Shown piece after piece: positions 3,782 to 52,400 of a stretch of DNA of 54,061 bases. A program made the position numbers and the translations under genes. The notes beneath the pieces are model-generated. The model saw nothing but the letters and a program-made list of their open reading frames with translations, was not told the DNA's origin and made no database searches. How positions within the stretch are numbered: the first letter of the stretch is position 1; each line of letters starts with the position of its first letter. Where the stretch lies: positions 1-54,061 of the forward strand of contig CAYHAR010000001.1 in assembly GCA_964354595.1 (NCBI GenBank), read 5' to 3'. This DNA comes from an uncultured Anaerolineae bacterium (GTDB taxonomy: Bacteria; Chloroflexota; Anaerolineae; Fen-1058).

Positions 3782-3782
3782 C

Positions 3783-5432: not shown

Positions 5433-5476
5433 AAGACAGGACGCCGTTCCCGAACCGTGCGGGATCATCAAGACCT

Positions 5477-31273: not shown

Positions 31274-31286
31274 ATGGCAACAGTGA
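31274..31286. repeat. left copy of the 13-bp direct repeat ATGGCAACAGTGA flanking the accessory island
   Basis: Exact 13-mer, also present at 45564..45576. GCACAA lies 9-10 nt upstream of both copies. Confidence 0.4.
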
Positions 31287-31445
31287 ATCAATTGCTAATC
31301 TTTACCGCCTCTCTTCCCCTGGACACTGGCCCCGTCACCTCTGCCTTGCTCACCCAGGTCGGGCAACCGGCAGCAGTGTGATACCACGGAACAGCGACTT
31401 GGCCAGGCTAGATGGCTTGGCTTTTGTTGTGGCTACACTGTCGCA

Positions 31446-31473
31446 TTGACAAACAGGGTGATGGGTCTATAAT
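31446..31473 (+). promoter_or_regulatory. consensus sigma70-type promoter at the start of an ORF-free ~750-nt leader
   Basis: TTGACA (31446..31451), a 16-nt spacer, then TATAAT (31468..31473). It faces the helicase gene. No convincing ORF lies between it and 32227. Confidence 0.45.
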
Positions 31474-32226
31474 CTCCATACCAAGCGATTTATCGGTTCT
31501 TGCGCGGTTGGGTTGTGCTGGACACCTTCTGTTTGATTCCCTACTTGCTGGGTTGGCAGAGCAGTTCTTTGGATTGAGTGTGGTTCTCTAGTCCGCACCG
31601 TCTCTTTTGCTGCTGCCATATGAGTTGAAGCGCAAGCGCATTACGATCACACTTGTCCAGAAGTATCAAAAGCAGGTAGCGGCTCACAAGTCACCTGGCA
31701 TATTGTCATATGGGTGCATCTCTGAAACTGTGCGCACGGATGTTCGGGTCTATACGGCTGACGGGAGTGCGGCGTAATCGGTATGTTCAAGTATTCGGAT
31801 AGCAGGATCGCCAGCGAGCAACGCCGGTTGCACGGTCACGGACGGGGTGGCGTTCGACTGACGCGCGACGACTGTCTTGCAGAAATCGGCGTGGAGCAAT
31901 TCCCAGGCCGGTTGCCAGGGCGATGCCGTTGGCATGTACCTGTAAGGGTTTCCTACCGTGCCAGATAACACTCTGCTCTACTTGCGGCCCTTTTCGTTTG
32001 CGGCTTCATCGCAGGCGAAGTAAAAGAGTGTCCCACGGCGCTTGCACACCTCGGACACTGCGAACGGGGTGCGGGTGCGTGGCGACCTCAGTCTATCACA
32101 ACCGGCCGCTCGCCTCGACAGCGCAAGGGCTCTTTCTTTGTAACGATCACTGATTCAATAGGGGATGACCAGTATTTCGTCCGGTCAACTGCTCCTTCCC
32201 GACACTGGCCATCATAGCAAATTCCA

Positions 32227-35200
32227 ATGGCCGACCTATCTACTCTCAAACCCGGCACCCGCGTCTTTGACCGGCATCGCAATCGCGAGCGGCTCATCCA
32301 CGCCGTCGAGCCTCTGGGCCGCGTGGTCAAAATCTGGTTCAAGGACTCGCACACCGGCGCACTTGAGCCGATGACATTTCCGGTCTCTGAAGTCGAGCGG
32401 CGATTTGAGAACATGGAATCGGGGGCATCCGCTTTCAGGGCCGACAGCGAAACGGTGCGCCTGTTGGCCGAAAGCTACCGGCTGCAACACGCCTACCTCT
32501 TCAATCCCGTCTTTGCCACCGAGACCTCGCTCATTGACGCCCTGCCCCACCAGTTGATCGCGGTCTACGATCACTTGCTCAAACAGCCACGCTTGCGATT
32601 CCTACTGGCTGACGATGCTGGCGCAGGCAAGACCATCATGGCCGGCCTCTACATTCGCGAAATGCTCTTGCGCCGCCTGATCAATCGCGTGCTGATCGTT
32701 CCCCCGGCGGGTCTGGTGGGCAACTGGGAAAAAGAGCTACGCAACTTGTTCCGGTTGCGCTTTCATATTCTCGAAAGCGCGGACGCTCAACGCGACAATC
32801 CATTCCTCGATCCGCGCAACGACCTGGCAATCGTGAGCGTGGACACACTCTGGCGTGACCGGATGCGCCAGCACTTGTTCGATGCTCCGCCCTATGACCT
32901 CGTCATCTTTGACGAGGCGCACAAGCTCTCGGCTCGCCGCAACGCGGATGGGACGGTGGACAAGTCCAACCGCTACTCGCTGGCCGAAGAAATCGCCGCG
33001 CAAAAGAATCATCTGCTGCTGCTCACCGCCACGCCGCACATGGGCAAAGATGAGCCCTACTATTTCCTCTGGCGATTGCTTGAGCCTGAACTGCTGGCGG
33101 CCCAAGAGGCTTTTGACCGCATGAGCGCCAAACGCAGACGTGCTCACCTGCTGCGGCGGATGAAGGAACAAATGATCCACTTTGATGGCGGCAAGATTTT
33201 CCCGCCGCGCGAGAGCAAGACCATCGAATACCCGCTCGTCCAGGGCGTGGGACAAGAGCAAGACCTGTACGATCAGGTCACGCAATACTGCGAGACGCAC
33301 TATGACCGCGCACGACGTCGTAACCAGTCGGCGGCCAAGCTGGCGATGGGCGTCTTGCAGCGGCGACTGGCTAGTTCCACCTGGGCGCTGCTCAAATCGC
33401 TGGAACGGCGCGAAGCCAAGCTGACTGAGGATGTGCGCCAGATGGAAGCTGGGCTTGTGGCCGCCGAAGAATTCCAGCGCAAGCAAAGCACACTTCCCAC
33501 CGTGGATTTGCGCGAGGCCAAGACCGGCGACGAAGAAGAAACCGAAGACGAGCAGGAAGAGTCCGAGCGCTTTGACGACGACCTGGCCGGCGCGACCGAA
33601 GCGCGCACGATTGACGAGTTGCGCGTCGAACTGGAAGAGGTCAAGCGACTCGTCGTGCTGGCTCGCTGTGTGTACGATCTCAAGCACGAAAGCAAGTTTG
33701 ACAAACTGTGGCAAGCGCTGCAAGACTATGCCGAGACCAAAGTCTTGATCTTTACCGAGCACCGCGACACAGCCGATTTCCTGGTGGGCCGATTGGAAGG
33801 GCTGGGGCTGACCGGCAGGCTCGCCCGAATTGACGGCACGCTGGATTACAAGCGGCGCGAAGTCGAGGTCGAGAAATTTCGCGAGCCACGCGGCGCGCGT
33901 TACCTTGTCGCCACCGATGCGGCGGGCGAAGGCATCAACTTGCAGTTTTGCTGGCTGCTGGTCAATTATGACATCCCGTGGAACCCGGCGCGCATCGAGC
34001 AGCGCATGGGCCGCGTCCATCGTTACAAGCAAAAGCACGCCGTCCTGTTGCTCAATCTGGTGGCCTCGGGCACGCGCGAAGGACGTGTGCTCAAGGTCTT
34101 GCTCGAAAAGCTGGAACGCATCCGCAAGGAATTGGGCAACGATAGCGTCTTTGATGTGATCGGCCAGCAGTTCAAGGGTAAATCGCTGTCCGAACTCATT
34201 TTCGAAGCGACCGTCGGAGGCCGCGACAGAGAAGTGGCGCAAGAGATTGATCAAGGCGTGACGGCCGACAAGGTCAAGGCTCAACTGGCCGAGCAAGCGC
34301 GCAAGGTTGAAGTGGCAGAAGTGCGCAGCCTGCTCGAGGCGCTCAAGCAGCAACAAGAATCCGCCGAGATGAAGCGCATGATGCCAGCCTATGTGCGCGG
34401 ATTCTTTCACGACGCCGCGCCGCTCGTGGGCGTCACGACCGAGGGCGACGTGGCCGGCATGTTCCGCGTGACCGACTGCCCTGACACGGTTCAACGCGCG
34501 ATAGACACCTACCCCGAACAAATCCGAGACGCGCTGACGTTCGACCGCGTGCTCGCCATGCCGGAAGACGCGCTTCAGCCGCAGGCTATTTATCTGCATC
34601 CTGGCGAGACCACGTTTGATGCCGTGGCGACCTTGTTCCAGGGCCACCATGATCACGCGGGCGAACGCGGCGGGGTGTTCTTTGACGAAAGCGCTGATGC
34701 GCCTTACCTGTTTTACCTGGCCAAGGTGCCCATCATTCGCGAGCCAGGCACGAACGGCGAAGCGCCTCGAATCCTCGACGAAGCGATGCTGGGGATCCGG
34801 CGCGATGCGGATGGGCGTTGTGAAGCGCTCCCTGCGCACTGGCTGATGACGCTCCTCGCCGCCGGCGAGGGCGATAACCTTGCAAAGGTTCCGGAACCTT
34901 TGCAAGGTTGGGACGATCTCGCTCCCGTTGAGGCGTTCCTGTACGAGACTGAAGGCACGCCGAGGCTGGAGCGACTGCGCGCTGAAGCGTTAGAACGCTT
35001 GCCGGAGCGACAAAAACAACTGCGCGAAGGTTACAACTTGCGCGAGGCCGAACTGCTCGAACAGCGCCAGGTGCTCAAGGATGCCGTTGCCAAAAACATT
35101 CCGGCGGCCAAGACCAAGCTGGCCGAATGCGAGCATGAACTCGACGCGCTCGACGCCAGACGCGCCGAAACCGAATCAGCCTATATTTCCGAGATTGACC

Positions 35201-35676
35201 GGATGGGCCTGGGGCCGGTGACGATTTACGTTCGCGCGCTCGTGTTGCCCATCCCGCCCGATTCCCCTGACGGGGATCTGCGACAAGCTCAACGCCGCCG
35301 TGACGACAAGGTCGAGGCGATTGCGATGAAGGTGGCCCGCGATCATGAAGTAGGATGCGGCGCGACGGTGGAAGACGTGAGCGACCCGCAGCGCAAGATG
35401 GGCTTTGACCTGCGCTCGGTTCGGCCTGATGGCTCGGTGCGCTTTATCGAGGTCAAAGGCCGCGCCCGTGTGGGCGATCTGGATCTGACGCCGAACGAGT
35501 GGGCACAGGCCAACAATCACCGAGAAAAGTACTGGCTGTACGTCGTGTTCAACTGCGAGACAAAGCCAGATCTCAGGCGCTATGCTGACCCAGCGGGCAA
35601 GGGCATCGGGCGGCCTAAGGGCGGCGTGACGATTGACGCCGACGACTTGCTCGACCTGCCCGGCGAATGTGATTGA
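32227..35676 (+). CDS. SNF2-family SF2 helicase with C-terminal DUF3883 (restriction-endonuclease-like) domain
   Basis: Motif I DDAGAGKT, motif II FDEAH, motif III LTATPHMG, motif V ATDAAGEGINLQ, motif VI WNPARIEQRMGRVHRYKQ. Acidic stretch EETEDEQEESERFDDD. C-terminus GFDLRSV...FIEVKGR...EKYWLYVVFNC. Confidence 0.85.
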   Translation: MADLSTLKPGTRVFDRHRNRERLIHAVEPLGRVVKIWFKDSHTGALEPMTFPVSEVERRFENMESGASAFRADSETVRLLAESYRLQHAYLFNPVFATETSLIDALPHQLIAVYDHLLKQPRLRFLLADDAGAGKTIMAGLYIREMLLRRLINRVLIVPPAGLVGNWEKELRNLFRLRFHILESADAQRDNPFLDPRNDLAIVSVDTLWRDRMRQHLFDAPPYDLVIFDEAHKLSARRNADGTVDKSNRYSLAEEIAAQKNHLLLLTATPHMGKDEPYYFLWRLLEPELLAAQEAFDRMSAKRRRAHLLRRMKEQMIHFDGGKIFPPRESKTIEYPLVQGVGQEQDLYDQVTQYCETHYDRARRRNQSAAKLAMGVLQRRLASSTWALLKSLERREAKLTEDVRQMEAGLVAAEEFQRKQSTLPTVDLREAKTGDEEETEDEQEESERFDDDLAGATEARTIDELRVELEEVKRLVVLARCVYDLKHESKFDKLWQALQDYAETKVLIFTEHRDTADFLVGRLEGLGLTGRLARIDGTLDYKRREVEVEKFREPRGARYLVATDAAGEGINLQFCWLLVNYDIPWNPARIEQRMGRVHRYKQKHAVLLLNLVASGTREGRVLKVLLEKLERIRKELGNDSVFDVIGQQFKGKSLSELIFEATVGGRDREVAQEIDQGVTADKVKAQLAEQARKVEVAEVRSLLEALKQQQESAEMKRMMPAYVRGFFHDAAPLVGVTTEGDVAGMFRVTDCPDTVQRAIDTYPEQIRDALTFDRVLAMPEDALQPQAIYLHPGETTFDAVATLFQGHHDHAGERGGVFFDESADAPYLFYLAKVPIIREPGTNGEAPRILDEAMLGIRRDADGRCEALPAHWLMTLLAAGEGDNLAKVPEPLQGWDDLAPVEAFLYETEGTPRLERLRAEALERLPERQKQLREGYNLREAELLEQRQVLKDAVAKNIPAAKTKLAECEHELDALDARRAETESAYISEIDRMGLGPVTIYVRALVLPIPPDSPDGDLRQAQRRRDDKVEAIAMKVARDHEVGCGATVEDVSDPQRKMGFDLRSVRPDGSVRFIEVKGRARVGDLDLTPNEWAQANNHREKYWLYVVFNCETKPDLRRYADPAGKGIGRPKGGVTIDADDLLDLPGECD

Positions 35677-35701
35677 CACGGTACACCAAAAGAAGTAAAA
35701 T
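35673..35701 (+). promoter_or_regulatory. near-consensus promoter for the Phd/VapC pair, overlapping the helicase stop codon
   Basis: TTGACA (35673..35678), a 17-nt spacer, then TAAAAT (35696..35701). It lies 35 nt upstream of the antitoxin ATG. Confidence 0.5.
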
Positions 35702-35735
35702 GTAGTCACATAAATAACTACTTGTGGGGTGAACC

Positions 35736-35999
35736 ATGCGCGAGATTGGTGTGCGGGAGCTAAAGGTAAAAGCCTCGGAAATCGTGCGCAGCGTGCGCAA
35801 GCGACGCGCCCGCTATATCATCACATATCGCGGGCGGCCCGTGGGCCTGCTATCACCGCTCGATGCCCAGGAGCCGAGCCGCGCGGATTCCAGCGAGTCT
35901 CCAGCCTGGGATGAGTTGACGCGGCTGGGCAAAGAAATCGGACGCGGCTGGCCGGCGGGTGTGAGCAGCGCCGACGTTCTTTCGGAGATGCGACGCTGA
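35736..35999 (+). CDS. type II antitoxin, Phd/YefM family
   Basis: MREIGVRELKVKASEIVRSV...YIITYRGRPVGLLSP. 87 aa. Stop overlaps the toxin start (TGATG). Confidence 0.8.
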   Translation: MREIGVRELKVKASEIVRSVRKRRARYIITYRGRPVGLLSPLDAQEPSRADSSESPAWDELTRLGKEIGRGWPAGVSSADVLSEMRR

Positions 36000-36436
36000 T
36001 GGCCCGACCCTTTACCGTTGACGCGAGCGTGTTTCTCAACGCTTTCAATCCGTCCGAGGCAGGTCATGCGGAAAGCCAGCGCGTGTTGGCCTGGCTGCGG
36101 GAACAGGCCACGCCCATCATCGTGCCGACGCTGGTGCTGCCCGAAGTGGCCGCCACCATCAGCCGCGTGCGGGGCGATGCGGCGCTGGCTCGCGATTTTG
36201 CGAGCGCCTTGAGCCGATTGCCCAATCTAGTGCTCGTCAATCTCGACACGACGTTGGCCCAGCAAGCCGCCGATGCCGCCGCGCAATACAGGCTGCGCGG
36301 CAGCGATGCCGTATACGCCGCCGTCGCATTGCGTTTTGGCACGGTGCTGATGACGCTCGACCGCGAACAGCGGGAACGGTTGGATCAAGTTTTGACCTGC
36401 CGTTATCCGACTCAAGTTTTGGCCGAAATCAAGTGA
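35999..36436 (+). CDS. vapC: type II toxin VapC (PIN-domain ribonuclease)
   Basis: PIN acidic residues are in context: FTVDASVF, LPEVAAT, GSDAVYAAVA, LMTLDRE. Confidence 0.8.
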   Translation: MARPFTVDASVFLNAFNPSEAGHAESQRVLAWLREQATPIIVPTLVLPEVAATISRVRGDAALARDFASALSRLPNLVLVNLDTTLAQQAADAAAQYRLRGSDAVYAAVALRFGTVLMTLDREQRERLDQVLTCRYPTQVLAEIK

Positions 36437-36444
36437 AGAATATT

Positions 36445-36719
36445 ATGGCAGCCGTTATGGTTGGACATATTGAGGTGACGCCCGATGTGTGCGGCGGTAA
36501 ACCGCACATTTCCGGTCATCGCATCGCGGTGCAGGATATTGCCATCTGGCACGAGCGGCTGGGCCTCGACCCCGACGAAATCGCGACTGAGCATTGTCTT
36601 ATTACCACGACCATCGTGCAGAAATAGATGCGTCTATCTGCGCCGACGAAGCGTTCATGGCCGAGTTGCGCCGCCATACGCCATCCAAAGTGATAAAGTT
36701 CCGTGCCCGAGCAAATTAG
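36445..36719 (+). pseudogene. DUF433-family gene remnant with internal deletion/frameshift
   Basis: Frame 1 reads IEVTPDVCGGKPHISGHRIAVQDIAIWHERLGLDPDEIATEH and then hits a premature stop (36625..36627). The typical DUF433 C-terminus ALSYYHDHRAEIDASI... continues in frame 0 from 36591 to the TAG at 36717..36719. Confidence 0.5.
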
Positions 36720-36746
36720 ATTCTACATGTTCGTATGAATTAGCCT

Positions 36747-36809
36747 GGACACAGATGAACACAGATTCCACAGATGTGTTATCTGTGTTCATCTGTGAAA
36801 TCTGTGTCC
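36747..36809. repeat. CACAGAT/ATCTGTG palindromic element, copy 1
   Basis: GGACACAGATGAACACAGATTCCACAGAT-gtgtt-ATCTGTGTTCATCTGTGAAATCTGTGTCC. Ends 15 nt upstream of the methyltransferase ATG. Confidence 0.85.
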
Positions 36810-36824
36810 TGAAAACCTGACTCT

Positions 36825-39686
36825 ATGACAAGACGCCTGATCGAAGAAGCCTTTCCGCTCAAAAAAGTCTCTGAAGACTCCAAGCACGAAAAGAACGTCC
36901 GGCACGGCCACATCAGCACGCTGCACATCTGGCCGGCCCGCCGGCCGCTGGCCGCTTGCCGCGCCGCCATCATCGCCGCGCTGATGCCCGACCCTGGCGA
37001 CGACAAAGCGCGCGAAGACCTCTGCCGCCGCATCGGCAACATTACCCGCTGGAAATCCGAAAACGGCCCTGACCTTCAATTCTTTCGCGACGAAATCCGT
37101 AAAGCGTTCGGCGGACGCGCGCCCAAAGTGCTCGACATGTTCGCAGGCGGCGGCGCGATCCCGCTGGAGGCGATGCGCCTGGGTTGTGACGTGACCGCGA
37201 TTGATTACAACCCCGTGGCGTGGTTCATCCTCAAATGCACGTTGGAATTTCCGCAGAAACTCGCTGGCAAGACCTGGCCCTTGCCGGTTAGTGGGACACA
37301 GATGAACACAGATGACACAGATAAAGAAAAGGAAAATCTGTGTTCACACCTGCACTTGCGTGCGGTGCAAGTGTCTGCGCAATCTGTGTCCAATCCAAAG
37401 GCCGTGCAGGCTGCGATGGATTTGGGCGCGCAAGAGGGCGACCTGGCCGCGCACGTGCGCTACTGGGGCAACTGGGTGTTGGAACGCGCGCGCGAGGAGC
37501 TTGCGCCGTATTACCCCACGATTGACGGCAAGCCAACCGTGGCTTATCTCTGGGCGCGAACTGTGCCCTGCCAAGACCCCAAGTGCAGCGCGACCGTGCC
37601 GCTGTTGAAAACTCTGTGGCTGTGCAAGAAGAACAACAAGCGGCGGGCGCTCCGACTCAAGCCAAATGTTGAATCGCGACGAGTAGAGTTCGAGATTTGG
37701 GAACCCGACGATGACGATGCTGTTGATCAAGGGACAATGAGCCGCGCAGGAGTTCAATGTCCGTGTTGTGGTGCTATTTTGCGGATGGATTACATACGGG
37801 CATGTGGTGAACAGAACAAAATTGGAATGCAGATGACCGCTGTGGTAGTAGGCGGAGAAGATGGTAAAGAATACAGGCGACCTACAACAAATGACTTTGA
37901 TGCATTTAAAAAGACGCAAGGTGCACTAGCACGGCAGCCAGCAAACCTCGTAGTAAACGAAGCCTTCAACCCAAGCAACACTCGCTCGATATCAATTCAG
38001 TTGTACGGATTTCACCGCTTTGCTGATTTCTTCAACAACCGCCAACTCTTGGCTATGACCGCTTTCGCTGGGCAGGTGGAGCGGGCGAAATTGGAGATGA
38101 ATGTTCTCGCCTATCCACCCCATTGGATTGACGCGATAACTGCATACTTGTCTCTCGCAGTTGACAAATTGGCGGACTACAATAGCTCACTGGCACGCTG
38201 GCTCAATGGCCTTGAAGCTATTGCAGGCACATTCGGAAGATTCGCTTTGTCGATTATGTGGGACTATGCAGAGGCGTGTCCGATATCCGACTCAACTGGT
38301 AGCTACATGAATGCAGTTCAGTGGGTAGCCAACTACGTTGACCATGCTTTGATTGCAGCACATGATTCTCCTCATCCAAGTGTAGACCAACATCCTGCGC
38401 AGACTCTACATGCACCTGTGAGCTACGATCTTATCGTAACTGACCCACCATACTATGACGCGATCTCCTATGCTGACATTTCGGATTTTTTCTATGTTTG
38501 GCTCAAGAGAACTGCAGGAATCTCGTATCCCGAACCTTTTGCTGGAGAGCTTACTCCCAAGAACGAGGAGTTGGTTCAGAACGCAACCAAGCATGGCAGT
38601 GAATTATTAGCGAAGCGAGCCTATGAAAGTGGCATGGCAGAAGCTTTCGGGGCAGCATTTGGCAATCTCAAGGAGAATGGCCGACTGGTCATTGTATTCG
38701 CACACAAGGATCCATTTGCGTGGGAGACCCTTGCGGAAGCAATGATCGCGGCAGGTTTTGTCGTTGTTGCCTCGTGGCCAATCAGCACAGAAAGAGTCGT
38801 ACGTTCAAGAGCATTGGCAGTAGCTTCTTTGGCTTCATCGATTTGGCTTGTCTGTCGCAAGCGCCTCGCTGATGCTGGCATTGGCCGCTATGTGGAAGTC
38901 AAGCGCAAAATGCAAGAGCGCATCACCGAGCGGCTGCGCTACTTTTGGGATCAGGGTATCTCTGGCCCGGACTTTATGTGGGCCGCCGTCGGCCCGGCGC
39001 TGGAAAGCTATTCCACTTACCGCGAAGTGCGGCGCATGGACGGCTCGCCGTTCACCGTGGGCGAATTCCTGCGTGAAGTGCGGCGGCTCGTCGCCGACTT
39101 TGCGCTCAGCCGCATCCTGCATGGGTCCAGCACGGAAGGGCTGGACGAGTGGACACGGTATTATCTGATACACCGCTCCAGCTTTAGCCTGGTTGCCGCG
39201 CCCGTGGGCGAGTGCATCCTGCTCGCGCAAGGCTACGGCCTCGACCTCAATGAGATCAAGGGGTCGCGCGGCATCCTCGTCAAAGGCAAAGCGAAAAAGG
39301 CTGTGGACGAGGACGAAGACGCCGACTCTCCTTTCCCGTCAGAAACGGGGGAGGAGGCAAGAGGTGGGGGCGGCAGTGACATTCGCCTGCTTTCCTTCGA
39401 CGAGCGCAAGCGCGACGACCTGGGCGAGCCGCATCCGTCCGGCGGTCTCCCATTGATAGACATGCTGCACCGGCTCATGCGGCTGTGGCAGGCGGGCGAT
39501 ACCGAAAAGTTGACTGCCTATGTCCAGCAGCACGGCCTCAGCCAGAATGACTTGTTCTGGGCTGTGGCGCAGGCCATCCTCGAAATGGCCGACCCCAAGA
39601 CCAAAGAGCGCGCGCTACTTGAGGCGCTCGTGGCGTGGGGGCGAGGCAAGCCCGCGCAGGCGGCCGATCAACCTGCACTCATTTGA
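36825..39686 (+). CDS. DUF1156-type DNA methyltransferase (DPPY; N6-adenine or N4-cytosine class)
   Basis: N-terminus LIEEAFPLKKVSEDSKHEK...HIWPARRP, SAM motif DMFAGGGAIP (37134..37163), Cys ribbon CQDPKC...CPCC, catalytic DPPY (38442..38453). Hosts an in-frame repeat insertion at 37294..37391. Confidence 0.85.
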   Translation: MTRRLIEEAFPLKKVSEDSKHEKNVRHGHISTLHIWPARRPLAACRAAIIAALMPDPGDDKAREDLCRRIGNITRWKSENGPDLQFFRDEIRKAFGGRAPKVLDMFAGGGAIPLEAMRLGCDVTAIDYNPVAWFILKCTLEFPQKLAGKTWPLPVSGTQMNTDDTDKEKENLCSHLHLRAVQVSAQSVSNPKAVQAAMDLGAQEGDLAAHVRYWGNWVLERAREELAPYYPTIDGKPTVAYLWARTVPCQDPKCSATVPLLKTLWLCKKNNKRRALRLKPNVESRRVEFEIWEPDDDDAVDQGTMSRAGVQCPCCGAILRMDYIRACGEQNKIGMQMTAVVVGGEDGKEYRRPTTNDFDAFKKTQGALARQPANLVVNEAFNPSNTRSISIQLYGFHRFADFFNNRQLLAMTAFAGQVERAKLEMNVLAYPPHWIDAITAYLSLAVDKLADYNSSLARWLNGLEAIAGTFGRFALSIMWDYAEACPISDSTGSYMNAVQWVANYVDHALIAAHDSPHPSVDQHPAQTLHAPVSYDLIVTDPPYYDAISYADISDFFYVWLKRTAGISYPEPFAGELTPKNEELVQNATKHGSELLAKRAYESGMAEAFGAAFGNLKENGRLVIVFAHKDPFAWETLAEAMIAAGFVVVASWPISTERVVRSRALAVASLASSIWLVCRKRLADAGIGRYVEVKRKMQERITERLRYFWDQGISGPDFMWAAVGPALESYSTYREVRRMDGSPFTVGEFLREVRRLVADFALSRILHGSSTEGLDEWTRYYLIHRSSFSLVAAPVGECILLAQGYGLDLNEIKGSRGILVKGKAKKAVDEDEDADSPFPSETGEEARGGGGSDIRLLSFDERKRDDLGEPHPSGGLPLIDMLHRLMRLWQAGDTEKLTAYVQQHGLSQNDLFWAVAQAILEMADPKTKERALLEALVAWGRGKPAQAADQPALI
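37294..37391. repeat. CACAGAT/ATCTGTG palindromic element, copy 2 (inside the methyltransferase CDS, read in-frame)
   Basis: GGACACAGATGAACACAGATGACACAGAT-aaagaaaaggaaa-ATCTGTGTTCA-[36-nt nested palindrome]-ATCTGTGTCC. Translated as GTQMNTDDTDKEKENLCSHLHLRAVQVSAQSVS. Confidence 0.85.
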
Positions 39687-39689
39687 TTA

Positions 39690-39769
39690 GGACACAGATG
39701 AACGCAGATAAACACAGATAAAAATCAAAAAAAAAGAAAAATCTGTGAAATCTGTGTGCATCTGTGTCC
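39690..39769. repeat. CACAGAT/ATCTGTG palindromic element, copy 3
   Basis: Starts 4 nt after the methyltransferase stop. Three CACAGAT-type units, an A-rich loop (aaaaatcaaaaaaaaagaaaa), then three ATCTGTG units. Confidence 0.85.
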
Positions 39770-39787
39770 AAAATAGAGGAGGCGATC

Positions 39788-40210
39788 ATGGCGGAGGGCA
39801 AGCACGCCGACCTGACGGAAAAGATCATTGGCGCCTTCTACAGAGTCTATAACACGTTGGGCTATGGCTTTTCCGAAAAGGCCTATGAAAATGCGCTGGC
39901 GATAGAGCTGCGTAAGCTCGGCCTCAAGGTCGAGCAACAGGCCCGCATCGTCGTCTATTACGAGGGCGAGGTGGTGGGCGAGTATCAGGCCGATCTCGTC
40001 GTCAACGACGTCGTCATCGTCGAGCTCAAAGCCGTCCGCCAACTGGCCGACGAGCACGAAGCGCAACTGCTCAACTATCTCAAAGCCACACCGATTGAGG
40101 TTGGCTTGCTGCTCAACTTTGGCCCCAAAGCCGAAATCAAACGCAAGGTCTATGACAACGAGCGCAAAGGTTCCTTGGCTTGGACAAAGGACACAGATAA
40201 ACACGGATGA
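39788..40210 (+). CDS. GxxExxY-family protein (PD-(D/E)xK-like)
   Basis: ATG at 39788 follows AGGAGG. Contains LTEKIIGAFYRVYNTLGYGFSEKAYENALAIEL...VVIVELKAV...HEAQLLNYLKAT...GLLLNFG. The last ~8 codons and the stop lie within repeat copy 4. Confidence 0.75.
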   Translation: MAEGKHADLTEKIIGAFYRVYNTLGYGFSEKAYENALAIELRKLGLKVEQQARIVVYYEGEVVGEYQADLVVNDVVIVELKAVRQLADEHEAQLLNYLKATPIEVGLLLNFGPKAEIKRKVYDNERKGSLAWTKDTDKHG

Positions 40211-40263
40211 ACACAGATAAAAACATAAAAGAAAATCTGTGTAATCTGTGTTCATCTGTGTCC
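40189..40263. repeat. CACAGAT/ATCTGTG palindromic element, copy 4
   Basis: GGACACAGATAAACACGGATGAACACAGAT-aaaaacataaaagaaa-ATCTGTGTAATCTGTGTTCATCTGTGTCC. Ends 18 nt upstream of the DUF499 ATG. Confidence 0.85.
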
Positions 40264-40281
40264 AACCAATAGGAGTAGCAC

Positions 40282-43200
40282 ATGGCAGCACCGCAACCCT
40301 GGCATCAACTCTGCAAGATCCGCGAGGACGTTCGCACCGGCACGCTCACGCTCGACGAGTTCGCCGCTGACCTGAACGCTGTCCGGACAGGCGAAGCGCC
40401 CGCCGTCTACAAGAACCCCGACGCCTTTTTCTCCCGCACCTATCCCACCTACAAGATGAAGACGCTCGTCCGTGACGTGCTGCATCGGTTGAGCGGAGAA
40501 GGCGGCAAGCCCATCCTGCACATCCAGGTGGCCTATGGCGGCGGCAAGACGCACACGCTCATCACGTTGTTGCACCTGGCCGAGCACGGCGCGGAATTTG
40601 CCGATCATCCCACCGTCCGTGAGTTTCTCGACTTTGCGGGACTCGGCGGCGGCAAGGTGCCGCGCACGCGCGTGGCGCTTTTGCCCTTTGACAAGTTTGG
40701 CGTCAAGGAGGGCCTCACCGTTCTGGGGCCGGATGGCAAGCCGCGCACGGTCAAGACGCCCTGGGGCGCGCTGGCCTATCAACTCGGCGGCGATGCGGCC
40801 TTTGCCCGCGTCAAGGAGCACGAAGACGATTACGTCACTCCCGCCGAGCCGTTGCTAGTTGACCTGCTCAAGCTGCCCCAGGCGCAAGGCCTCGCGACAC
40901 TCATTCTGATTGACGAGGCGGTCTGGTACTATCGCAATGCGGTGGACAATCAGCCGCGCCGATTTGGGATCATCAAAGACTTTTACCAGGTGCTCACGCA
41001 AGCGGTCGCCAAAGTCAACCGAGCCGCGATGGTGGCCGCGCTGATCGCCTCGCGCGTCGAGGCCAACGACGAGACCGGCGCGAAATGCCTCAAGGTGTTG
41101 GAAGATGTCTTTGGCCGCATGGCTGAGGCCATCGAGCCGGTCGTCAAAGACGACGTGTCCGAAGTCTTGCGCCGCCGCCTGTTCGAAGTGGTGCCCGGCG
41201 AAGAACAGCGCCGGCCCAGCATAGACGCGCTGATGGCCCAGATGCAAAAGCTGCCGTTGCGCGACGCGCAAAAAGATCAGGCTGCTTACAACCGGCTGAT
41301 GCAGGCGTATCCGTTCCACCCTGACCTGATTGACGTGCTCTATTCCAAGTGGACGCAGTTCAGCGGCTTTCAGCGGACGCGCGGCGCGCTCCGTCTGCTG
41401 GCGCTTGCGCTGCGCAACGTGGGCACGGACGATCCGTTCCCCGTCATCGGCCCGCACGCGCTTCTGGCCAGGGACGACCTCTCGCCCGCCCTTGTCGAGC
41501 TGATCAATTGCTGCGAAGAAAAGGAAAAGTGGACGCCCATCTTGCGCGGCGAACTGGACAAGGCGCGCGAGGCGCAGAGCGGTTTCCCGTCGCTCAAGGA
41601 TCGCGAACTCGAGCAGGCCGTCATTGCCACGTTCCTTCATTCGCAGCCCACCGGCCAACGCGCCGATCCATCCGAACTCTACGTCCTGCTCGCGCACCCG
41701 AAGGTGGATCCGCTGGCGCTTGGCGAAGCGCTCAAGAAATGGCGCGACCTGTCGTGGTTCCTTATCGAAGACTCGACCGCATGGGCGCTCAGCACCCGAC
41801 CGAACCTCACGCACATGCACGTGCGGGCGATGGAGCGCCTGCCCGAGCCCGCCGTGGATGACGAGTTGCGCAAGCGCATCCAGGGCACGGCTGACCTCAA
41901 GCAGGCCGACGACGGGGTGATACCTCACGCCTTGCCTCAAGGCCCACAGGATGTGCCCGATAACGTCGAGGGCCTGCGCTATCTCATCCTCGGCCCCGAG
42001 TGCGCCGTTGATCCTGGCAAGCCGCTGCCCAAAGCCGTCGAGGATTATTTCAAGATCACGACCGGCCCCAAGAATCCCCGCACCTATGCCAACACGCTGG
42101 TCGCACTGGCTCCCGATCATGCTCGACTGGCCGGTTTGCGCGATCAGGTGCGGCGCTTTCTCGGCTGGCGCGGCGTCGAAACCAGCGACGAGTTCAAATT
42201 GCTGTCCGACCTTCAACGCAAAGAACTCGCCCGTCGCAAGCAAGCGTCGCAGGATGGTCTCTCCGATGCGGTGCGTGCCACCTACAGCGTCTTGTTGGCT
42301 GTGGACGAAACAGGCCGCGTCGTCGCCAAAGCGATTCCATCCGAGCTGGGCCAGCCGCCGTTCGAGCGCATTAAAAAGCTCTTGTCCGAGTCCGAACGCC
42401 TGCTGATGTCCACGCTCGATCCCGAGTTGCTGCTGCCCGGCAGCTATTTTGAACTGTGGGGGCCGGACGAGAAAAGCAAAAAGGTGCAAGACCTGGTCTC
42501 GGCGTTTGCCCAGTTCCCTCGCTTGCCCAGATTGCTGCGTCCACGCGCTTTGCGGGATACCCTCGTGCGCGGCGTGCAGGCTGGCAAGCTGGTCTTGCGC
42601 CTCGTCCGCGACGACGGCTCGATTCGCACTTTCTGGATGCTCCCGCCGGACGAAGACGCGCTGGCGCGTCCGCAGCTCGAAGTGCTCCCGGCGGACACGG
42701 CAGAGCTTGCCAACCTCGAGCCTGAATTGCTTATCCCAGGCACAGTGTCCGAACTGTGGCCAGTCTCGGGCGACCCGGTTCGCGTCTCCAGCCTGCGCAC
42801 CTTTTTTGACGGCAAGCGCGCGCCTCGCCTTCATTCGCCCGATGTGCTCGATGCTGCAATCCGCGCCGCTGTTCAGCGCGGCAGCCTGATGGGCCGGCAG
42901 GGAACCAAGACCTATCTCCGCGAGCCGTTGCCCGCTGGCAATGTGGCAGACGATTTGGAGTTGCTGACGCCACCGCCCGCCGTTCGCGGCGCTGACCTCG
43001 GCCCCAAGGGATTGCCGGAAGCATGGCACGCTGGCAAAGCTTCACTTGATGTGATTGCCGGTGCACTTGCCAAACGGCGCGGCTACGCCGTTCCGTGGGT
43101 ACTGTTGCGGGATGGCGTGAGCGAGGCGCTGTCGGCGCACCTGTTTGAGGTGGCCGAGGGCAGCACTCCCTGGCCCTGCACACCGGACGCGCTTGACCGC

Positions 43201-43677
43201 GTCAATTTCCGCACGGTCGAAGTCATCGAAGTAGACCCGGCTGAATTAGTAGGTGCGGGCATTCAGTATGCGGGGACAGAAGGCACGCCCACACTCCGCA
43301 AAATCAAAGAAGCCCTGGAGCAAACTCGTGGGCAGGCTATCCCCGGCGACGTATTCCGCAAGGCCGTCGAGGGCGCGGTCAACAAGGGCATCATCACTAT
43401 CGCCGATTTGGGCGTCAAGGCGCTGCCGAATGCCGAGGCGCTGCTCAAACTCTGCGCCCGCCTGCCCAAGGCAACACTTGTTGCAGAGGCCGCGCTCACA
43501 CCCAAGCAACTCCAAGACCTGGCCGGCATCATCGCGCAACTCAAACAGACCGCGCCGGACTTGGAGTTTGCTTTCCGTGTAGTCATCACCGCTGAAGGCG
43601 AAAGACCGAGTGAGGAAGTACTGGCGGAGTTGAATAAACTGTTGAATGATGTAAAGAGTGGGTGGAAGATGGAGTAA
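40282..43677 (+). CDS. DUF499-type P-loop ATPase (BrxC/PglY-like)
   Basis: AGGAG lies 7 nt upstream. N-terminus PWHQLCKIREDVRTGTLTLDEFAADL, Walker A GGGKTH (40537..40554), Walker B TLILIDEA. 1131 aa. Confidence 0.8.
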   Translation: MAAPQPWHQLCKIREDVRTGTLTLDEFAADLNAVRTGEAPAVYKNPDAFFSRTYPTYKMKTLVRDVLHRLSGEGGKPILHIQVAYGGGKTHTLITLLHLAEHGAEFADHPTVREFLDFAGLGGGKVPRTRVALLPFDKFGVKEGLTVLGPDGKPRTVKTPWGALAYQLGGDAAFARVKEHEDDYVTPAEPLLVDLLKLPQAQGLATLILIDEAVWYYRNAVDNQPRRFGIIKDFYQVLTQAVAKVNRAAMVAALIASRVEANDETGAKCLKVLEDVFGRMAEAIEPVVKDDVSEVLRRRLFEVVPGEEQRRPSIDALMAQMQKLPLRDAQKDQAAYNRLMQAYPFHPDLIDVLYSKWTQFSGFQRTRGALRLLALALRNVGTDDPFPVIGPHALLARDDLSPALVELINCCEEKEKWTPILRGELDKAREAQSGFPSLKDRELEQAVIATFLHSQPTGQRADPSELYVLLAHPKVDPLALGEALKKWRDLSWFLIEDSTAWALSTRPNLTHMHVRAMERLPEPAVDDELRKRIQGTADLKQADDGVIPHALPQGPQDVPDNVEGLRYLILGPECAVDPGKPLPKAVEDYFKITTGPKNPRTYANTLVALAPDHARLAGLRDQVRRFLGWRGVETSDEFKLLSDLQRKELARRKQASQDGLSDAVRATYSVLLAVDETGRVVAKAIPSELGQPPFERIKKLLSESERLLMSTLDPELLLPGSYFELWGPDEKSKKVQDLVSAFAQFPRLPRLLRPRALRDTLVRGVQAGKLVLRLVRDDGSIRTFWMLPPDEDALARPQLEVLPADTAELANLEPELLIPGTVSELWPVSGDPVRVSSLRTFFDGKRAPRLHSPDVLDAAIRAAVQRGSLMGRQGTKTYLREPLPAGNVADDLELLTPPPAVRGADLGPKGLPEAWHAGKASLDVIAGALAKRRGYAVPWVLLRDGVSEALSAHLFEVAEGSTPWPCTPDALDRVNFRTVEVIEVDPAELVGAGIQYAGTEGTPTLRKIKEALEQTRGQAIPGDVFRKAVEGAVNKGIITIADLGVKALPNAEALLKLCARLPKATLVAEAALTPKQLQDLAGIIAQLKQTAPDLEFAFRVVITAEGERPSEEVLAELNKLLNDVKSGWKME

Positions 43678-45563: not shown

Positions 45564-45576
45564 ATGGCAACAGTGA
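45564..45576. repeat. right copy of the 13-bp direct repeat ATGGCAACAGTGA flanking the accessory island
   Basis: Exact match to 31274..31286. Lies between the last island gene (start 45513, minus strand) and the ASKHA gene (45666). Confidence 0.4.
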
Positions 45577-49482: not shown

Positions 49483-52400
49483 GTGAGACTGCTCAACCAC
49501 CCTGCTTTTCGCGCTTTGCTTCGCCGCGCGGGCACGGCGCTGGCGATTCTGCTCGTCATCACCTGGCTGACCCTGTTCGGCTTGATCCTGGCCGAGCGAG
49601 GGCGAGCAGGATTGCCGGCCAGGCCGCCGGAGGCTGCCATTGAAGCTTTGGGCCGGACGGCTGCCTATGTGGTGGATCATCCGGCGACCTACTATTGGCA
49701 CAAGCGAGACGTTTCGGCTCCAGATTTGGTGATCACGTTGTTCAGCCGCAGCGCTGGGCTGCTGCTGGTAGCCCTGGGGATTGCGGCCATTGTCGGCGTG
49801 CCGCTCGGCATTGTGATGGCCCTGTCCCGGCGTCAAATCGTCGCGCCGCTGGCGTTGCTGCTTTCGATCTTGGGAGTTTCGACGCCCAGCTTTTTGCTGG
49901 CTATGTTGTTCTGGGTGATCAATATCCAGGCTTATCGCTGGCTTGGCACAGATAGCGCGCCGCTTCCACCGACGGGCTTTGGGTGGGACTTGCACATGGT
50001 AATGCCGGCGCTCGTGCTGGCCGCTCGCCCGCTGGCCCAGGTGGTCCAAGTCACTTTTGTCTCCATGTCCAGCGTGCTGCAAGAAGATTACGTGCGGACC
50101 GCGCAAGCCAAAGGGTTGGCCGAGCGAGTAGTGCTGGGCCGCCACGCGCTGCGGAACGTGCTGATCCCGATCCTGACCACGCTGGGCACCTCGCTGCGTT
50201 TTTCGCTCGCCAGCCTGCCGGTGGTGGAATATTTCTTCGTCTGGCCCGGCATGGGACTGACGTTGTTGCAGGCCATCGAGGCGGGGACCTCCGGGCTTGT
50301 GACAGACCTGATCGTGTCGCTCGGTTTCTTGTTCTTGATCATCAACCTGGCGCTGGAAACGGTTTACCAGATCGTGGATCCGCGACTGCGGGGAAACGGC
50401 CATGCTCAGGAGCAGCTTGAGGAGCAACTGCCCTGGCAGGAACAGTTGACTCGATTCAAAGACACGCTCGTCGAGTGGTGGGGCGATTTGCTGGTGACTC
50501 TCCGGCTGCGCCGTCAGCCCTCTCAGCTTTCTCCTTTGCCAGCGCAACTGGTCAATAACGGCCTGGCGGCCAGTGACGCATTGCCGGCTTCTGCCGCTTC
50601 ATCCCGACGGTACCTGCTTCGCGCCACGTTGGGCAATCCCACGCTGGTGATCGGCACGCTGTTGGTGTTGTCATTCTTTGGCGTGGCCTTTTTCGGCGAG
50701 CAGTTGACCCGGGCGAATCCCGGTGAGACCCATGGCACGATGATGATCGAGGGACAGTTAAAAGCTTCGCCTTTCCGCCCCTCGTCTGTTTTTCCGTGGG
50801 GCAGCGACATGATCGGGCGGGACATGCAGGCGTTGGTGCTGGCCGGGGCCAAACAGACTTTGGCTCTGGCTTTGGCCGGAACGGCGGCCCGCGTGCTCTT
50901 GGGCACGGTGTTGGGATTATTGGGCGGATGGTGGCGCGGGAGTTGGCTGGACAAGCTGGTCAACGGCGCAGTGGGAGTGTGGGCTGCTTTTCCCGTCACG
51001 CTGTTTGCCATGATTTTGATTCTGGCTCTGGGCATCCAGCAAGGGCGGTCAGTCTTTATCATCGCGCTGTGTGCGGTGGGCTGGGGCGAGACGGCCCAGT
51101 TTGTGCGCGGCCAGGTGCTCTCGCTCAAGCCGCAGCCCTATATCGAGGCGGCGCGAGCCGCCGGGGCGCGCTCGGGCCGGATACTTTCCTGGCACATCTT
51201 GCCGCAACTGTTGCCGTCGCTCTTGGTCTTGGCCGTGCTCGAGATGGGCGGCATCTTGATGCTGCTGGCCGAGCTGGGCTTTCTCAACATCTTTTTGGGC
51301 GGCGGGTTCAAGGTCGAGCTGACCAGCGAAAAGATCTTTCACTATTCCGACGTGCCCGAATGGGGCGCGCTTTTGGCCAACATCCGCGACTGGTGGCGCA
51401 GTTACCCGTGGATGGCATGGTATCCGGGCCTGGGCTTTTTTGCGGCGATTTTGGGCCTGAACCTGTGGGGCGATGGATTGCGCCGTCTATTGGAGGCGAC
51501 CCGCGTCAACGTCAGCCGGTTGATCAATCGCTATACGGTGGTTGCGGCCGGCGCGCTCGTGATCGGGCTGGTGTGGGTGCTGCGCAGCACAGCGCCGATC
51601 GAGGTGTATCAATCCCAGGCCAAACAATTTGACGCTCAACGCGCGATGGAGGACATTCGCGTTCTATCCTCTCAATCTCAGAGCGAGGTGACGCGCGTCC
51701 GGACACCCGCCAGTGAGGGCGAATTGCAGACGCTCTCGTCCGGCCAATTCAACGGGCGCGAGCCGGGCACGCCTGGGGCCAGGCTGGCCGCCGAATACAT
51801 CGCCGGACGGATGGGAGAGATCGGGCTTTCTCCGGCCGGCGACGCGAACGCCTACATCCAGACTTTTGTTTGCAGCCGTTTCCACTTGACCGAGACGCCC
51901 CGCCTGGAATTTTTGAATGGACAAGGCGTGACTCTGTTGCTGACCTACAGGCAAGATTTTGCCGAGTACGTTCACCTCCTGCCGACCTACGGCGACGGCC
52001 AGGGGACGATTATCGGGATGGCGCTCGGCCCTGATCCAGAAACATCGGGATCGGACATTTACGGCCTCAACAGCCTTGGCCTCGGCGACAAGATCGTCGT
52101 CCTGCGCGAGCCGGACATGCTGCGCGTCAACATCCCGGCGATGGCGGGCGCGCTTTTCGTCAGCGACGACCCGGCCAAGGTCGGAGGCAAGTATATTTTT
52201 GGCGGAGATGAGACGATTGGGCTGCGCCGCAATAACTATAAATCCAGGCCCGTGATGTACATCACCCCAGAGACGGCCGACAGGCTGCTGTCGACGGCGG
52301 GCAGCAGCCTGTCCGAGTTGGATAACATGGCGAAAGGCTTGCAGCCTGGCAAGGCGGCTTTGACGGGCGCCGGAACAAGGGCGCGCATCAAGGTCGCCGC

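Follow-up and report, generated by a model that had tools for sequence, protein, structure and literature searches.

A predicted Hma defence operon in an Anaerolineae chromosome, with a divergent methylase core and a hairpin-bracketed embedded gene

The Hma system (helicase, methylase, ATPase) was named as a defence candidate with 1,638 instances in 26 phyla, which were not assayed (Payne et al., 2021; PMC8565338). Hma is usually solitary, and its embedded genes, present in 62.7% of 1,485 systems, have been used to discover new defence systems (10.1101/2024.01.29.577857). DUF499-centred "BREX-related" (BR) systems, with earlier sightings in 2013 and 2020, are derived from bacteriophage exclusion (BREX) systems and comprise Type-1, with a helicase carrying a C-terminal active nuclease and an ATPase with or without HEPN, Type-2, with an HKD-helicase and DUF3780, and Type-3, with PglZ and iSTAND (Rakesh and Krishnan, 2026; PMC12839542). 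Further features given for Type-1 are a TUDOR domain at the N-terminus, a helicase with an inactive REase plus an alpha+beta domain, and an ATPase ending in a wHTH/RRM (PMC12839542). Experimentally, HmaA of Halomonas meridiana alone protects Escherichia coli from phage T4 approximately 100-fold; defence is lost in the motif VI mutant R610A and in a four-residue nuclease mutant (D1084/E1104/K1106/E1121), and the isolated PD-(D/E)XK domain nicks supercoiled plasmid in an Mn2+-dependent manner (Liu et al., 2024; PMC11232893). Without HmaB, the Halomonas protein is non-toxic and protective in E. coli, and the infected cells turn dormant; T4 raised on an HmaB-expressing host stays sensitive; and hmaB and hmaC are missing from approximately 15–20% of hmaA neighbourhoods (PMC11232893). 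This report is focused on a predicted Hma operon at positions 32227-43677 of a 54,061-nucleotide (nt) stretch of an uncultured Anaerolineae bacterium (contig CAYHAR010000001.1, assembly GCA_964354595.1), hereafter the window, and on the repeats and small genes embedded in the operon.

The three giant open reading frames (ORFs) of the 54-kb window lie on the + strand at 32227-35676 (1149 amino acids, aa), 36825-39686 (953 aa), and 40282-43677 (1131 aa). Their best matches in PADLOC-DB are HmaA (2.1e-179), HmaB (8.1e-131), and HmaC (7.5e-112), and the runner-up families (DrmD, BrxHI/II, type II methylases, and generic DUF499) are far weaker. The Pfam architecture of the trio is SNF2 with NOV_C (DUF3883), a DUF1156 methyltransferase, and DUF499, and these domain scores exclude chance ORFs in GC-rich DNA. 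Hma systems are called on single gene copies on one strand, without a pseudogene and with at most three embedded genes between neighbours (10.1101/2024.01.29.577857). In the window, hmaA, hmaB, and hmaC each occur once, intact and on one strand, and the embedded genes stay within that limit: Phd, PIN, and a DUF433 remnant between hmaA and hmaB, and a GxxExxY gene between hmaB and hmaC. The profile matches identify 32227-43677, very confidently, as an Hma defence operon, alias the DUF499-centred "Type-1 BREX-related" system; the trio is an already catalogued system, and the locus is a further, HEPN-less type-1 example. Among the eleven ORFs scanned in 31.7-45.6 kb, no Pfam match was found to the markers of type-2 BR (HKD helicase N-terminus, DUF3780) or type-3 BR (PglZ, iSTAND). 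Likewise, PglZ, BrxL, DUF1998, phospholipase D (PLD), HsdS/R, and Res had no match among the Pfam-scanned ORFs of the locus and the other scanned ORFs of the window, six flanking ORFs being scanned with NCBIfam alone and the ORFs in 3759-6597, 20962-23678, and 50796-53870 lying outside the scan.

The original prediction had reported three very large same-strand ORFs, and all of its coordinates are exact and every motif it quoted is found at its position; the repeats and the four small genes or gene remnants located between these ORFs do not figure in it. The families it read from the translations, SNF2, DUF3883, DUF1156, and DUF499, are those returned by the Pfam profiles, so the profile searches proposed as a check matched the trio, and its guess that catalogues list such a neighbourhood as Hma was right according to the PADLOC HmaA/B/C models. 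It had also set the trio apart from canonical BREX, from the defence island system associated with restriction-modification (DISARM), and from type I/III restriction-modification (R-M), and the markers of these systems have no match in the scanned ORFs. By contrast, the statement that the trio fits no named type has to be withdrawn, because it fits both Hma (PMC8565338) and the "Type-1 BREX-related system" (PMC12839542), and a first mechanistic study, of which the prediction knew nothing, exists for the Halomonas HmaA (PMC11232893). Its view of DUF3883 as a nuclease stands, the domain of the Halomonas homologue being a nickase, whereas the claim that this is the only visible candidate nuclease does not, as a PIN RNase and a PDDEXK_3/GxxExxY protein are encoded inside the operon. 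As an example of Hma, the locus adds little, since the system is catalogued, widespread (26 phyla), and the subject of a published experimental study; what merits follow-up is the chimeric core of the methylase, together with the GxxExxY cassette and its hairpins.

The product of hmaA (32227-35676, + strand) is a Swi2/Snf2 translocase with a C-terminal NOV_C (DUF3883) PD-(D/E)XK nuclease domain. Residues 10-1109 of its 1149 match PADLOC PDLC00659 (2.1e-179, 596.8 bits), and the Pfam matches are Helicase_C (6e-22), SNF2-rel_dom (2e-12), ResIII (8e-12), and a full-length NOV_C (4.6e-21, residues 1029-1117). The protein additionally matches PADLOC DrmD (6.7e-110), BrxHI (3.5e-94), and BrxHII (5e-81), and scores 343.5 against NCBIfam DrmD, below the cut-off of 610; the closest relative of solved structure by sequence is the bacterial Snf2 protein RapA (1.5e-28). 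The helicase motifs DDAGAGKT, FDEAH, and LTATPHMG are encoded at 32611-32634, 32908-32922, and 33022-33045, followed by ATDAAGEGINLQ (33910-33945) and WNPARIEQRMGRVHRYKQ (33979-34032), and the nuclease-domain motifs GFDL, FIEVKGR, and YWLYVV at 35401-35412, 35443-35463, and 35530-35547. Invariant residues in a six-locus alignment include D129-T136 of motif I, D229-E230-x-H232 of motif II, and Q592-R593-x-G-R596 of motif VI in the helicase, and D1061, E1075-V-K1077, and E1091 in the nuclease. By motif and order, and not by direct alignment, D1061, E1075, K1077, E1091, and R596 appear to correspond to the mutated Halomonas residues. An effector role is assigned to HmaA at this locus because these catalytic residues are conserved. 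Identity to the two closest loci is even along HmaA, at 75–78%.

The product of hmaB (36825-39686, + strand) is a DUF1156-type amino-methyltransferase and the putative specificity and modification subunit. It matches PADLOC PDLC00661 and PDLC00660 (8.1e-131 and 2.4e-127) and Pfam DUF1156 (9e-21, residues 9-59), resembles the type-3 BREX methylase (PADLOC PglX/PglXI, 9e-10), and has no relative in the PDB by sequence. The S-adenosylmethionine (SAM) motif I DMFAGGGAIP is encoded at 37134-37163 (aa 104-113) and DPPY at 38442-38453 (aa 540-543), and an alignment of 19 homologues reveals a conserved Cys4 ribbon (C249/C254/C312/C315). DPPY is a hallmark of amino (N6A/N4C) methylases. HmaB is labelled "m5c methyltransferase" in the text of the PADLOC paper (PMC8565338), and "DNA-adenine methylase" in the PADLOC-DB model description, and it is treated as an N6 methylase by Rakesh and Krishnan (PMC12839542). 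The order of motif I, Cys4 insert, and DPPY favours an amino-methylase rather than an m5c enzyme.

The central part of hmaB, a low-GC core at 37665-38864 (+ strand) encoding residues 281-680, covers part of the target-recognition insert and the catalytic region, and it is the sole part of the gene that is highly divergent from close homologues. Its GC content is 0.49 and its third-codon-position GC content (GC3) 0.46, compared with 0.62-0.64 and 0.76-0.82, respectively, in the remainder of the gene. The two ends of the protein (residues 1-280 minus the linker, and 681-953) are 75–100% identical to close homologues in most 40-residue blocks, two blocks of the C-terminal part dropping to about 60%, whereas residues 281-680 are mostly 20–60% identical to close homologues, and the core is 28–50% identical to the nearest loci. 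No donor of the core was found, the best plasmid match being 37% identical. This pattern suggests that the core was replaced recently by recombination, probably in a specificity/catalytic swap; HsdS and Mod typically exchange their specificity regions by recombination. It is also the pattern expected if the HmaB core alone carried a swappable specificity used by HmaA and HmaC, and the ultra-conserved termini could then act as docking surfaces. Closely related loci that differ almost only in a 1.2-kb methylase core of foreign composition offer a direct way of asking if HmaB by itself determines specificity, a mechanistic question that concerns Hma and the BREX-related systems in general.

The product of hmaC (40282-43677, + strand) is a DUF499 P-loop ATPase, a putative sensor or scaffold, that matches PADLOC PDLC00662 (7.5e-112, 373 bits) and Pfam DUF499 (7.8e-24), with the Walker A motif GGGKTH at 40537-40554 (aa 86-91) and the Walker B motif LILIDEA at 40900-40920 (aa 207-213). 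The match to PADLOC BrxC (E = 0.0042, 13 bits) does not reach the level of the BrxC/PglY family, and no PDB relative was found by sequence; identity to the two closest loci is as even as that of HmaA (75–78%). The window protein has no N-terminal HEPN, the Walker A motif being located already at aa 86, and it is missing the approximately 160 extra N-terminal residues of plasmid HmaC homologues annotated "Swt1 family HEPN". HEPN is optional for type-1 systems, a HEPN-ATPase fusion being present in 1370 of 2446 type-1 taxa (PMC12839542).

Related loci were gathered from HmaB homologues with 50–70% identity (mostly in Chloroflexota assemblies), one sister-species locus, and annotated plasmids, and ten were counted after near-identical contig copies had been merged. 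The order SNF2+NOV_C helicase, DUF1156, DUF499 on one strand is found in seven of the ten (L003/4/5, L006, L007/8, L009/10, L011, L214/215, and L217); in L218 the trio is complete, with the helicase gene reversed relative to the other two, and two end-truncated contigs contain only DUF1156-DUF499 (L002) or a partial hmaB-GxxExxY-DUF499 (L213). The helicase-methylase-ATPase order is therefore kept in all eight loci in which the three genes are visible, in agreement with the co-localisation in relatives that had been proposed as the second check. The cargo of the junctions varies from locus to locus and includes DUF4365, an AAA_15/21 ATPase with DUF4276 or an uncharacterised partner, NA37 with a helicase, a Y1 transposase, an uncharacterised gene with PIN, AbiEi/AbiEii, DarT-Macro, HicAB with helix-turn-helix (HTH) genes, and a four-helix-bundle gene. 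In the same-species L213, hmaB is 99.8% identical over aa 342-953, hmaC is full length (1131 aa), and hmaA lies outside the contig; DNA identity between the window and L213 is 99.3% in the Hma part and just 96.5% in the chromosomal flank.

A hairpin unit, composed of three tandem 10-mers (..ACACAGAT..), an A-rich loop, and three inverted 10-mers, occurs in four copies of 63-98 nt within 3.6 kb, which are confined to the Hma locus within the window and to which no strand is assigned. The hairpin core pattern has ten matches in the 54 kb, compared with 0.03 expected, and nine are inside the four copies. Copy 1 (36747-36809; fold -34.7 kcal/mol, z = -6.4) lies 15 nt upstream of the hmaB ATG, copy 2 (37294-37391; -41.2 kcal/mol, z = -4.8) is in frame in the hmaB linker (aa ~157-189), copy 3 (39690-39769; -38.0 kcal/mol, z = -11.9) lies in the interval separating the hmaB stop from the GxxExxY start, and copy 4 (40189-40263; -39.0 kcal/mol, z = -10.4) covers the 3′ end of GxxExxY in part and ends 18 nt upstream of the hmaC ATG; the distance from the end of copies 1, 3, and 4 to the start codon of the next gene (hmaB, GxxExxY, and hmaC, respectively) is 15-18 nt. 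A 66-nt direct repeat (39727-39792 and 40221-40286), spaced by 494 nt, includes an ATG and a purine-rich GGAGG/GGAG stretch, a likely ribosome-binding site before GxxExxY and hmaC; owing to this repeat, the GxxExxY gene and one hairpin behave as a 494-nt cassette. The HmaB linker is hypervariable in all homologues, and one homologue (P0003 in L002) has the same hairpin at the same site. That all HmaB linkers are translated hairpins was rejected, as only the window (z = -4.2) and L002 (z = -6.3) stand out and five others range from -1.8 to +2.0. Copy 4 and its counterpart in L213 (2336-2410) have arms that are dissimilar at several positions, against 99.8% identity in the coding sequence that flanks them, and over the aligned region 37848-40300 indels are restricted to hairpin copies 3 and 4 and the sequence directly around them (39727-40282). 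As a candidate RNA family, the hairpins were also rejected, yielding only meaningless miRNA-like matches below threshold.

The GxxExxY gene itself (39788-40210, + strand) encodes a 140-aa protein of the PDDEXK_3 nuclease fold (Pfam PDDEXK_3, 1.1e-43; NCBIfam TIGR04256, 1.2e-42), in which D69 and K81 are invariant and E79 is present in eight of nine sequences and replaced by D in one. No PDB relative was found by sequence, and a single-sequence AlphaFold2 model was poor (predicted local distance difference test score, pLDDT, 61.5); with this poor model, the best Foldseek match was 3ijm, a "restriction endonuclease-like fold" (E = 4e-3, TM 0.40), and Hjc was not significant. A PHROG search on the phage origin of the small genes gave no informative match.

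Beyond the window, the 18-mer ACACAGATGAACACAGAT has exact matches in at least 120 stretches of a species-representative genome set (L012-L131), in Acidobacteriota, Planctomycetota, Cyanobacteria, Chloroflexota, Desulfobacterota, Verrucomicrobiota, Methanosarcina, and others. The idea that this hairpin always accompanies a GxxExxY gene was rejected, such a gene lying within 300 nt in 9 of the 120 loci. The converse holds: inverted 10-mer arrays flank every full-length GxxExxY match in the DNA examined. Loop lengths are bimodal, with 52 bare hairpins at 0-171 nt, ten at 349-466 nt, and one at 635 nt, and a GxxExxY protein is encoded in six of the long loops. Arms and gene vary together, the arm variants being CACGGAT, CCGCAGAT, and CACGAAT. 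In 80 metagenome loci (L132-L211, 71 of them usable), selected by protein similarity alone with a four-sequence alignment as the query, the density of AC[AG]CNGA[TA] is 16.4/kb in the ±130-nt flanks, 0.29/kb in the gene, and 0.73/kb elsewhere, with forward copies upstream and reverse copies downstream; at least two motif copies in a flank are found in 62 of the 71. Four-helix-bundle genes have a comparable arrangement. On the Ca. Chlorohelix allophototropha plasmid NZ_CP128402.1 (L217, 7820-8530), a "four helix bundle protein" gene at the hmaB/hmaC junction has hairpins of another sequence family on both sides, and a 112-nt direct repeat with a spacing of 497 nt ends in a likely ribosome-binding site and ATG, an architecture like that of the GxxExxY cassette; a second such gene (L049, 6634-6978) has inverted arrays on its flanks as well.

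These patterns make it possible, if doubtful, that GxxExxY and its arms constitute an undescribed cross-phylum family of mobile minicassettes of approximately 0.5 kb with AC[AG]CNGAT arms, in which ORF-less derivatives, like miniature inverted-repeat transposable elements (MITEs) or repetitive extragenic palindromes (REPs), far outnumber the ORF-bearing units, and whose range includes the colonisation of Hma. The units would accordingly be small selfish cassettes with MITE-like derivatives, for which we infer mobility; the Hma operon would have been colonised by one ORF-bearing copy at the hmaB/hmaC junction and by solo hairpins before and inside hmaB, and four-helix-bundle proteins would be a second cargo family using the same architecture. 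In the searchable literature, the hairpin 17-mer was not found, PF13366/TIGR04256 is described only as "unknown", and no account of the hairpin/GxxExxY unit was found. The unit resembles REPs with their associated tyrosine transposases (REP/RAYT), MITEs, attC integron cassettes, and ORF-bearing 23S rRNA intervening sequences in that a small ORF is enclosed by inverted hairpin-forming repeats, ORF-less copies outnumber ORF-bearing ones, the sites are intergenic or at operon junctions, and the arms co-vary with the gene. It differs from these elements in that the cargo has a PD-(D/E)XK fold and is not a Y1 transposase or integrase, its arms are arrays of three 10-mers (AC[AG]CNGAT), and its mobility is presumed. 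Alternatively, the GxxExxY gene could be a recruited auxiliary or backup nuclease of Hma rather than a selfish minicassette, which we consider unlikely. Standalone PD-(D/E)XK proteins are the commonest auxiliary effectors within BREX-related loci (PMC12839542), and the gene lies on the same strand as the operon with its own purine-rich GGAGG, a likely ribosome-binding site, and has retained its catalytic D and K invariantly and its E nearly so. However, it is missing from all other fetched Hma loci bar the same-species copies, has no PADLOC family match (E = 0.0087 only), and is replaced at the same junction of another Hma locus by the four-helix-bundle gene with its own hairpins; genes sampled by protein similarity alone, mostly on short contigs, bear similar flanking inverted 10-mer arrays, and solo hairpins are spread across many phyla. 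The embedded gene advises caution regarding "guilt by embedding", looking selfish rather than like a defence gene, and the hairpin association provides a lead on two large families, GxxExxY and the four-helix-bundle "intervening-sequence" proteins.

For the operon itself, a three-part mechanism appears reasonably probable, with HmaA as the effector, HmaB providing specificity and self-marking, and HmaC serving assembly and sensing. The Swi2/Snf2 motor of HmaA would translocate on double-stranded DNA and bring the PD-(D/E)XK nickase to invading DNA; HmaB, an N6-adenine-type (DPPY) methyltransferase, would mark host DNA, its central core setting the specificity of the system; and HmaC, a BrxC-like AAA+/STAND ATPase, would assemble or license the complex and help to sense the invader. 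HmaB is taken as the modification and specificity subunit because of its intact catalytic motifs, zinc (Zn)-ribbon insert, swappable foreign core, and ultra-conserved termini, and a methylase that marks self with a motor that attacks unmodified DNA, the model put forward in the original prediction, would agree with the published hypothesis. The junctions between the hma genes would be landing pads for other elements, solo hairpins of the GxxExxY cassette having presumably landed before hmaB and in frame in its variable linker; each hairpin lies before a likely ribosome-binding site and start codon and may serve as a site of RNA processing or uncoupling in the operon. Several points weigh against this mechanism. 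Methylation, specificity, and a complex have not been demonstrated in any Hma system; in the single experiment to date, HmaA without HmaB is non-toxic to unmodified E. coli, and T4 from HmaB cells is sensitive (PMC11232893). Neither outcome would be expected from simple R-M logic. As T4 carries heavy DNA modification of its own, the test with T4 from an HmaB host may not be conclusive. In addition, hmaB/hmaC are missing in approximately 15–20% of hmaA neighbourhoods (PMC11232893), and the stable hairpin in the hmaB frame, with two more between hmaB, GxxExxY, and hmaC, could disturb expression.

In the main rival, which the Halomonas data keep in play, HmaA would be a self-sufficient, abortive-infection-like helicase-nickase that senses phage DNA structure or modification, and HmaB and HmaC would be modulators, for example, a regulator or an anti-anti-defence layer; this is a genuine but clearly less probable alternative. 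The solitary protection by Halomonas HmaA (approximately 100-fold against T4, non-toxic without HmaB, and with dormant infected cells), the failure of HmaB in the phage-producing host to protect T4, and the hmaA genes (15–20%) that have no hmaB and hmaC nearby all favour it (PMC11232893). It is at odds with the retention of three genes in one order on one strand in hundreds to thousands of loci of the literature, with the order kept in the eight fetched loci (seven on one strand), and with the intact DPPY and SAM motif of HmaB, and the swap pattern of the HmaB core, typical of specificity subunits, is difficult to reconcile with a regulator. A BREX-like block, in which methylation marks self, replication of unmodified phage DNA is halted without cutting, and the HmaA nuclease is minor or a backup, is less likely and indeed improbable: HmaC is a sister of BrxC, HmaB resembles PglXI and HmaA matches BrxHI/BrxHII at the PADLOC values given above, and BR systems are derived from BREX (PMC12839542), but no PglZ, BrxA/B, or BrxL is found among the Pfam-scanned ORFs in and around the locus, and the HmaA nuclease residues are invariant and needed for defence in the Halomonas homologue. 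Least likely, to the point of being far-fetched, is a locus in decay or silenced, into which selfish elements (the toxin-antitoxin pair, hairpins, and GxxExxY cassette) have moved and which has lost its defence function. The hairpin within hmaB, the adjoining DUF433 pseudogene, and the four repeat copies in 3.6 kb would fit such decay, as would the result that no other defence genes were detected among the scanned neighbouring ORFs, yet three ORFs of 950-1150 codons are intact with all catalytic motifs, the in-frame hairpin occupies a linker of hypervariable sequence across all homologues and is also present in an intact one, and the same-species L213 retains hmaB aa 342-953 at 99.8%, a full-length hmaC, and a segment of 99.3% identical DNA.

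The junction between hmaA and hmaB contains a toxin-antitoxin pair on the + strand. A Phd/YefM-type antitoxin gene (35736-35999, 87 aa) matches Pfam PhdYeFM_antitox at 7.5e-07 and 29.3 bits, slightly short of the 29.8-bit cut-off, and it overlaps by one base, its last, with the start codon of a PIN-domain (VapC-like) toxin gene (35999-36436, 145 aa; Pfam PIN, 1.4e-15); the acidic quartet D8, E49, D103, and D121 of the PIN protein was read from its translation. Ahead of the pair, a consensus scan alone indicates a promoter-like site at 35673-35701 (+ strand, 11/12 positions). Toxin-antitoxin or abortive modules recur in Hma loci, as with DarT-Macro (DarTG; L214, 4099-5820), HicAB (L218, 6699-7435, Thermus pVV8), AbiEi/AbiEii (L002, 3069-5064), and an uncharacterised gene with PIN (L011, 6685-8102), in parallel to the Phd/YefM-PIN pair. 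The DUF433 gene remnant (36445-36719, + strand) matches Pfam DUF433 at 3.2e-12 for 36445-36627, spanning only profile positions 1-41 of 56, and the expected C-terminal "ALSYYHDHRAEID" continues in another frame, in the ORF 36594-36719; the gene is apparently a frameshifted pseudogene. DUF433 genes are often paired with a PIN-like toxin. On the 3′ side of the remnant, no toxin partner is present, just hairpin copy 1. A 111-aa ORF at 36485-36820 was judged spurious as a gene, having no family match and passing through the hairpin.

The window is core chromosome. Upstream neighbours of the operon include a Mur ligase, RpoD, DnaG, PPDK, a fused GlyQS, RecO, SecDF, and two-component genes, and downstream neighbours include DUF498, RACo, and CoA-transferase genes; RpoD-DnaG, PPDK, and RecO confirm the core chromosomal setting. 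GlyQS is 62–65% identical to its named homologues, which belong to Anaerolineae, Thermoflexia, and other Chloroflexota, and its alpha and beta subunits of glycyl-tRNA synthetase are fused in one 1005-aa ORF (13835-16852). The variable segment of 14.3 kb that includes Hma is framed by a direct repeat of 13 nt, ATGGCAACAGTGA (left copy 31274-31286; right copy 45564-45576, closely upstream of the RACo gene; both on the + strand); these are the only two copies in 54 kb, both direct, with 0.05 expected and two or more found in none of 100 shuffles. Next to the left copy, a conserved 139-nt non-coding segment (31288-31425, + strand) upstream of hmaA matches L214 9731-9869 in inverted orientation with 88% identity, and there it is likewise upstream of a different hmaA. 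In this sister species, whose RACo is 87% identical, the same chromosomal spot is occupied by another Hma, inverted and with DarT-Macro embedded, with one ATGGCAACAGTGA copy beside the RACo gene and the 139-nt segment (9731-9902), and a more distant relative has no Hma at the corresponding site; from these comparisons, the Hma site is a variable hotspot. No integrase was found at the hotspot, and the hairpins, the 139-nt segment, and the island ends contain no tRNA/tmRNA and no Rfam match at gathering thresholds. Approximately 750 nt upstream of hmaA, a promoter-like TTGACA-16-TATAAT (31446-31473, + strand) has 12/12 consensus positions in a consensus scan alone, which is not evidence of function; it is followed by a long stretch with no convincing genes, the ORFs 31750-31971 and 31923-32153 having no family match. 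Near the window end, a 112-nt direct repeat (52508-52619 and 53891-54002, 73% identical, 1383 nt apart) and a similar pair (52142/53516, approximately 1374 nt apart) suggest a tandem gene duplication.

Compared with known systems, the locus is closest to Hma/Type-1 BR, with which it shares its three proteins, their order, and their common strand, a helicase with a C-terminal PD-(D/E)XK domain, a methylase with a DUF1156 N-terminus, Zn-ribbon insert, and DPPY, and a DUF499 ATPase; embedded genes are present at both junctions, as embedded genes are in 62.7% of Hma systems in general. It differs from HEPN-bearing type-1 systems in the HmaC without HEPN fusion, and from other Hma in its window-specific cargo (Phd/YefM-PIN, the DUF433 remnant, and the GxxExxY cassette with hairpins) and in an hmaB with an in-frame hairpin and compositionally foreign core, in a host most similar to Chloroflexota. 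Type-2 BR, the NCBIfam "anti-phage-associated" DUF1156/DUF499/phospholipase-D helicase set (NF042962-4), has a similar tripartite logic and homologous DUF1156 and DUF499 proteins, whereas the window helicase lacks an HKD/PLD nuclease at its N-terminus and DUF3780 is missing from the scanned ORFs; the scores against NF042963 (193.2, cut-off 1000), NF042962 (134.5, cut-off 1200), and NF042964 (150.7, cut-off 1100) are all far below threshold. Type-3 BREX (BrxC, PglXI, BrxHII, PglZ, BrxA, and BrxF) has homologous ATPase, methylase, and Snf2 helicase cores; unlike it, the scanned ORFs of the window locus include no PglZ, BrxA, or BrxF/BrxB, the helicase has a predicted active nuclease, and the methylase has a DUF1156 N-terminus. 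Class 1 DISARM (DrmA, DrmB/DUF1998, DrmC/PLD, DrmD, and DrmMI) is similar in its DrmD-related Snf2 helicase and adenine-type methylase, and different in that the scanned ORFs contain no DrmA, DrmB, or DrmC and a DUF499 ATPase is present instead. Finally, type I/III/ISP R-M systems are alike in working principle only, with an ATP-driven DNA translocase-nuclease coupled to an amino-methyltransferase, the variable region of which would govern the specificity of both activities; only the generic ResIII model matches, within the Snf2 core, with no HsdS, HsdM, HsdR, or Res gene among the scanned ORFs, and the Hma operon of the window has, unlike these systems, an extra STAND-like ATPase.

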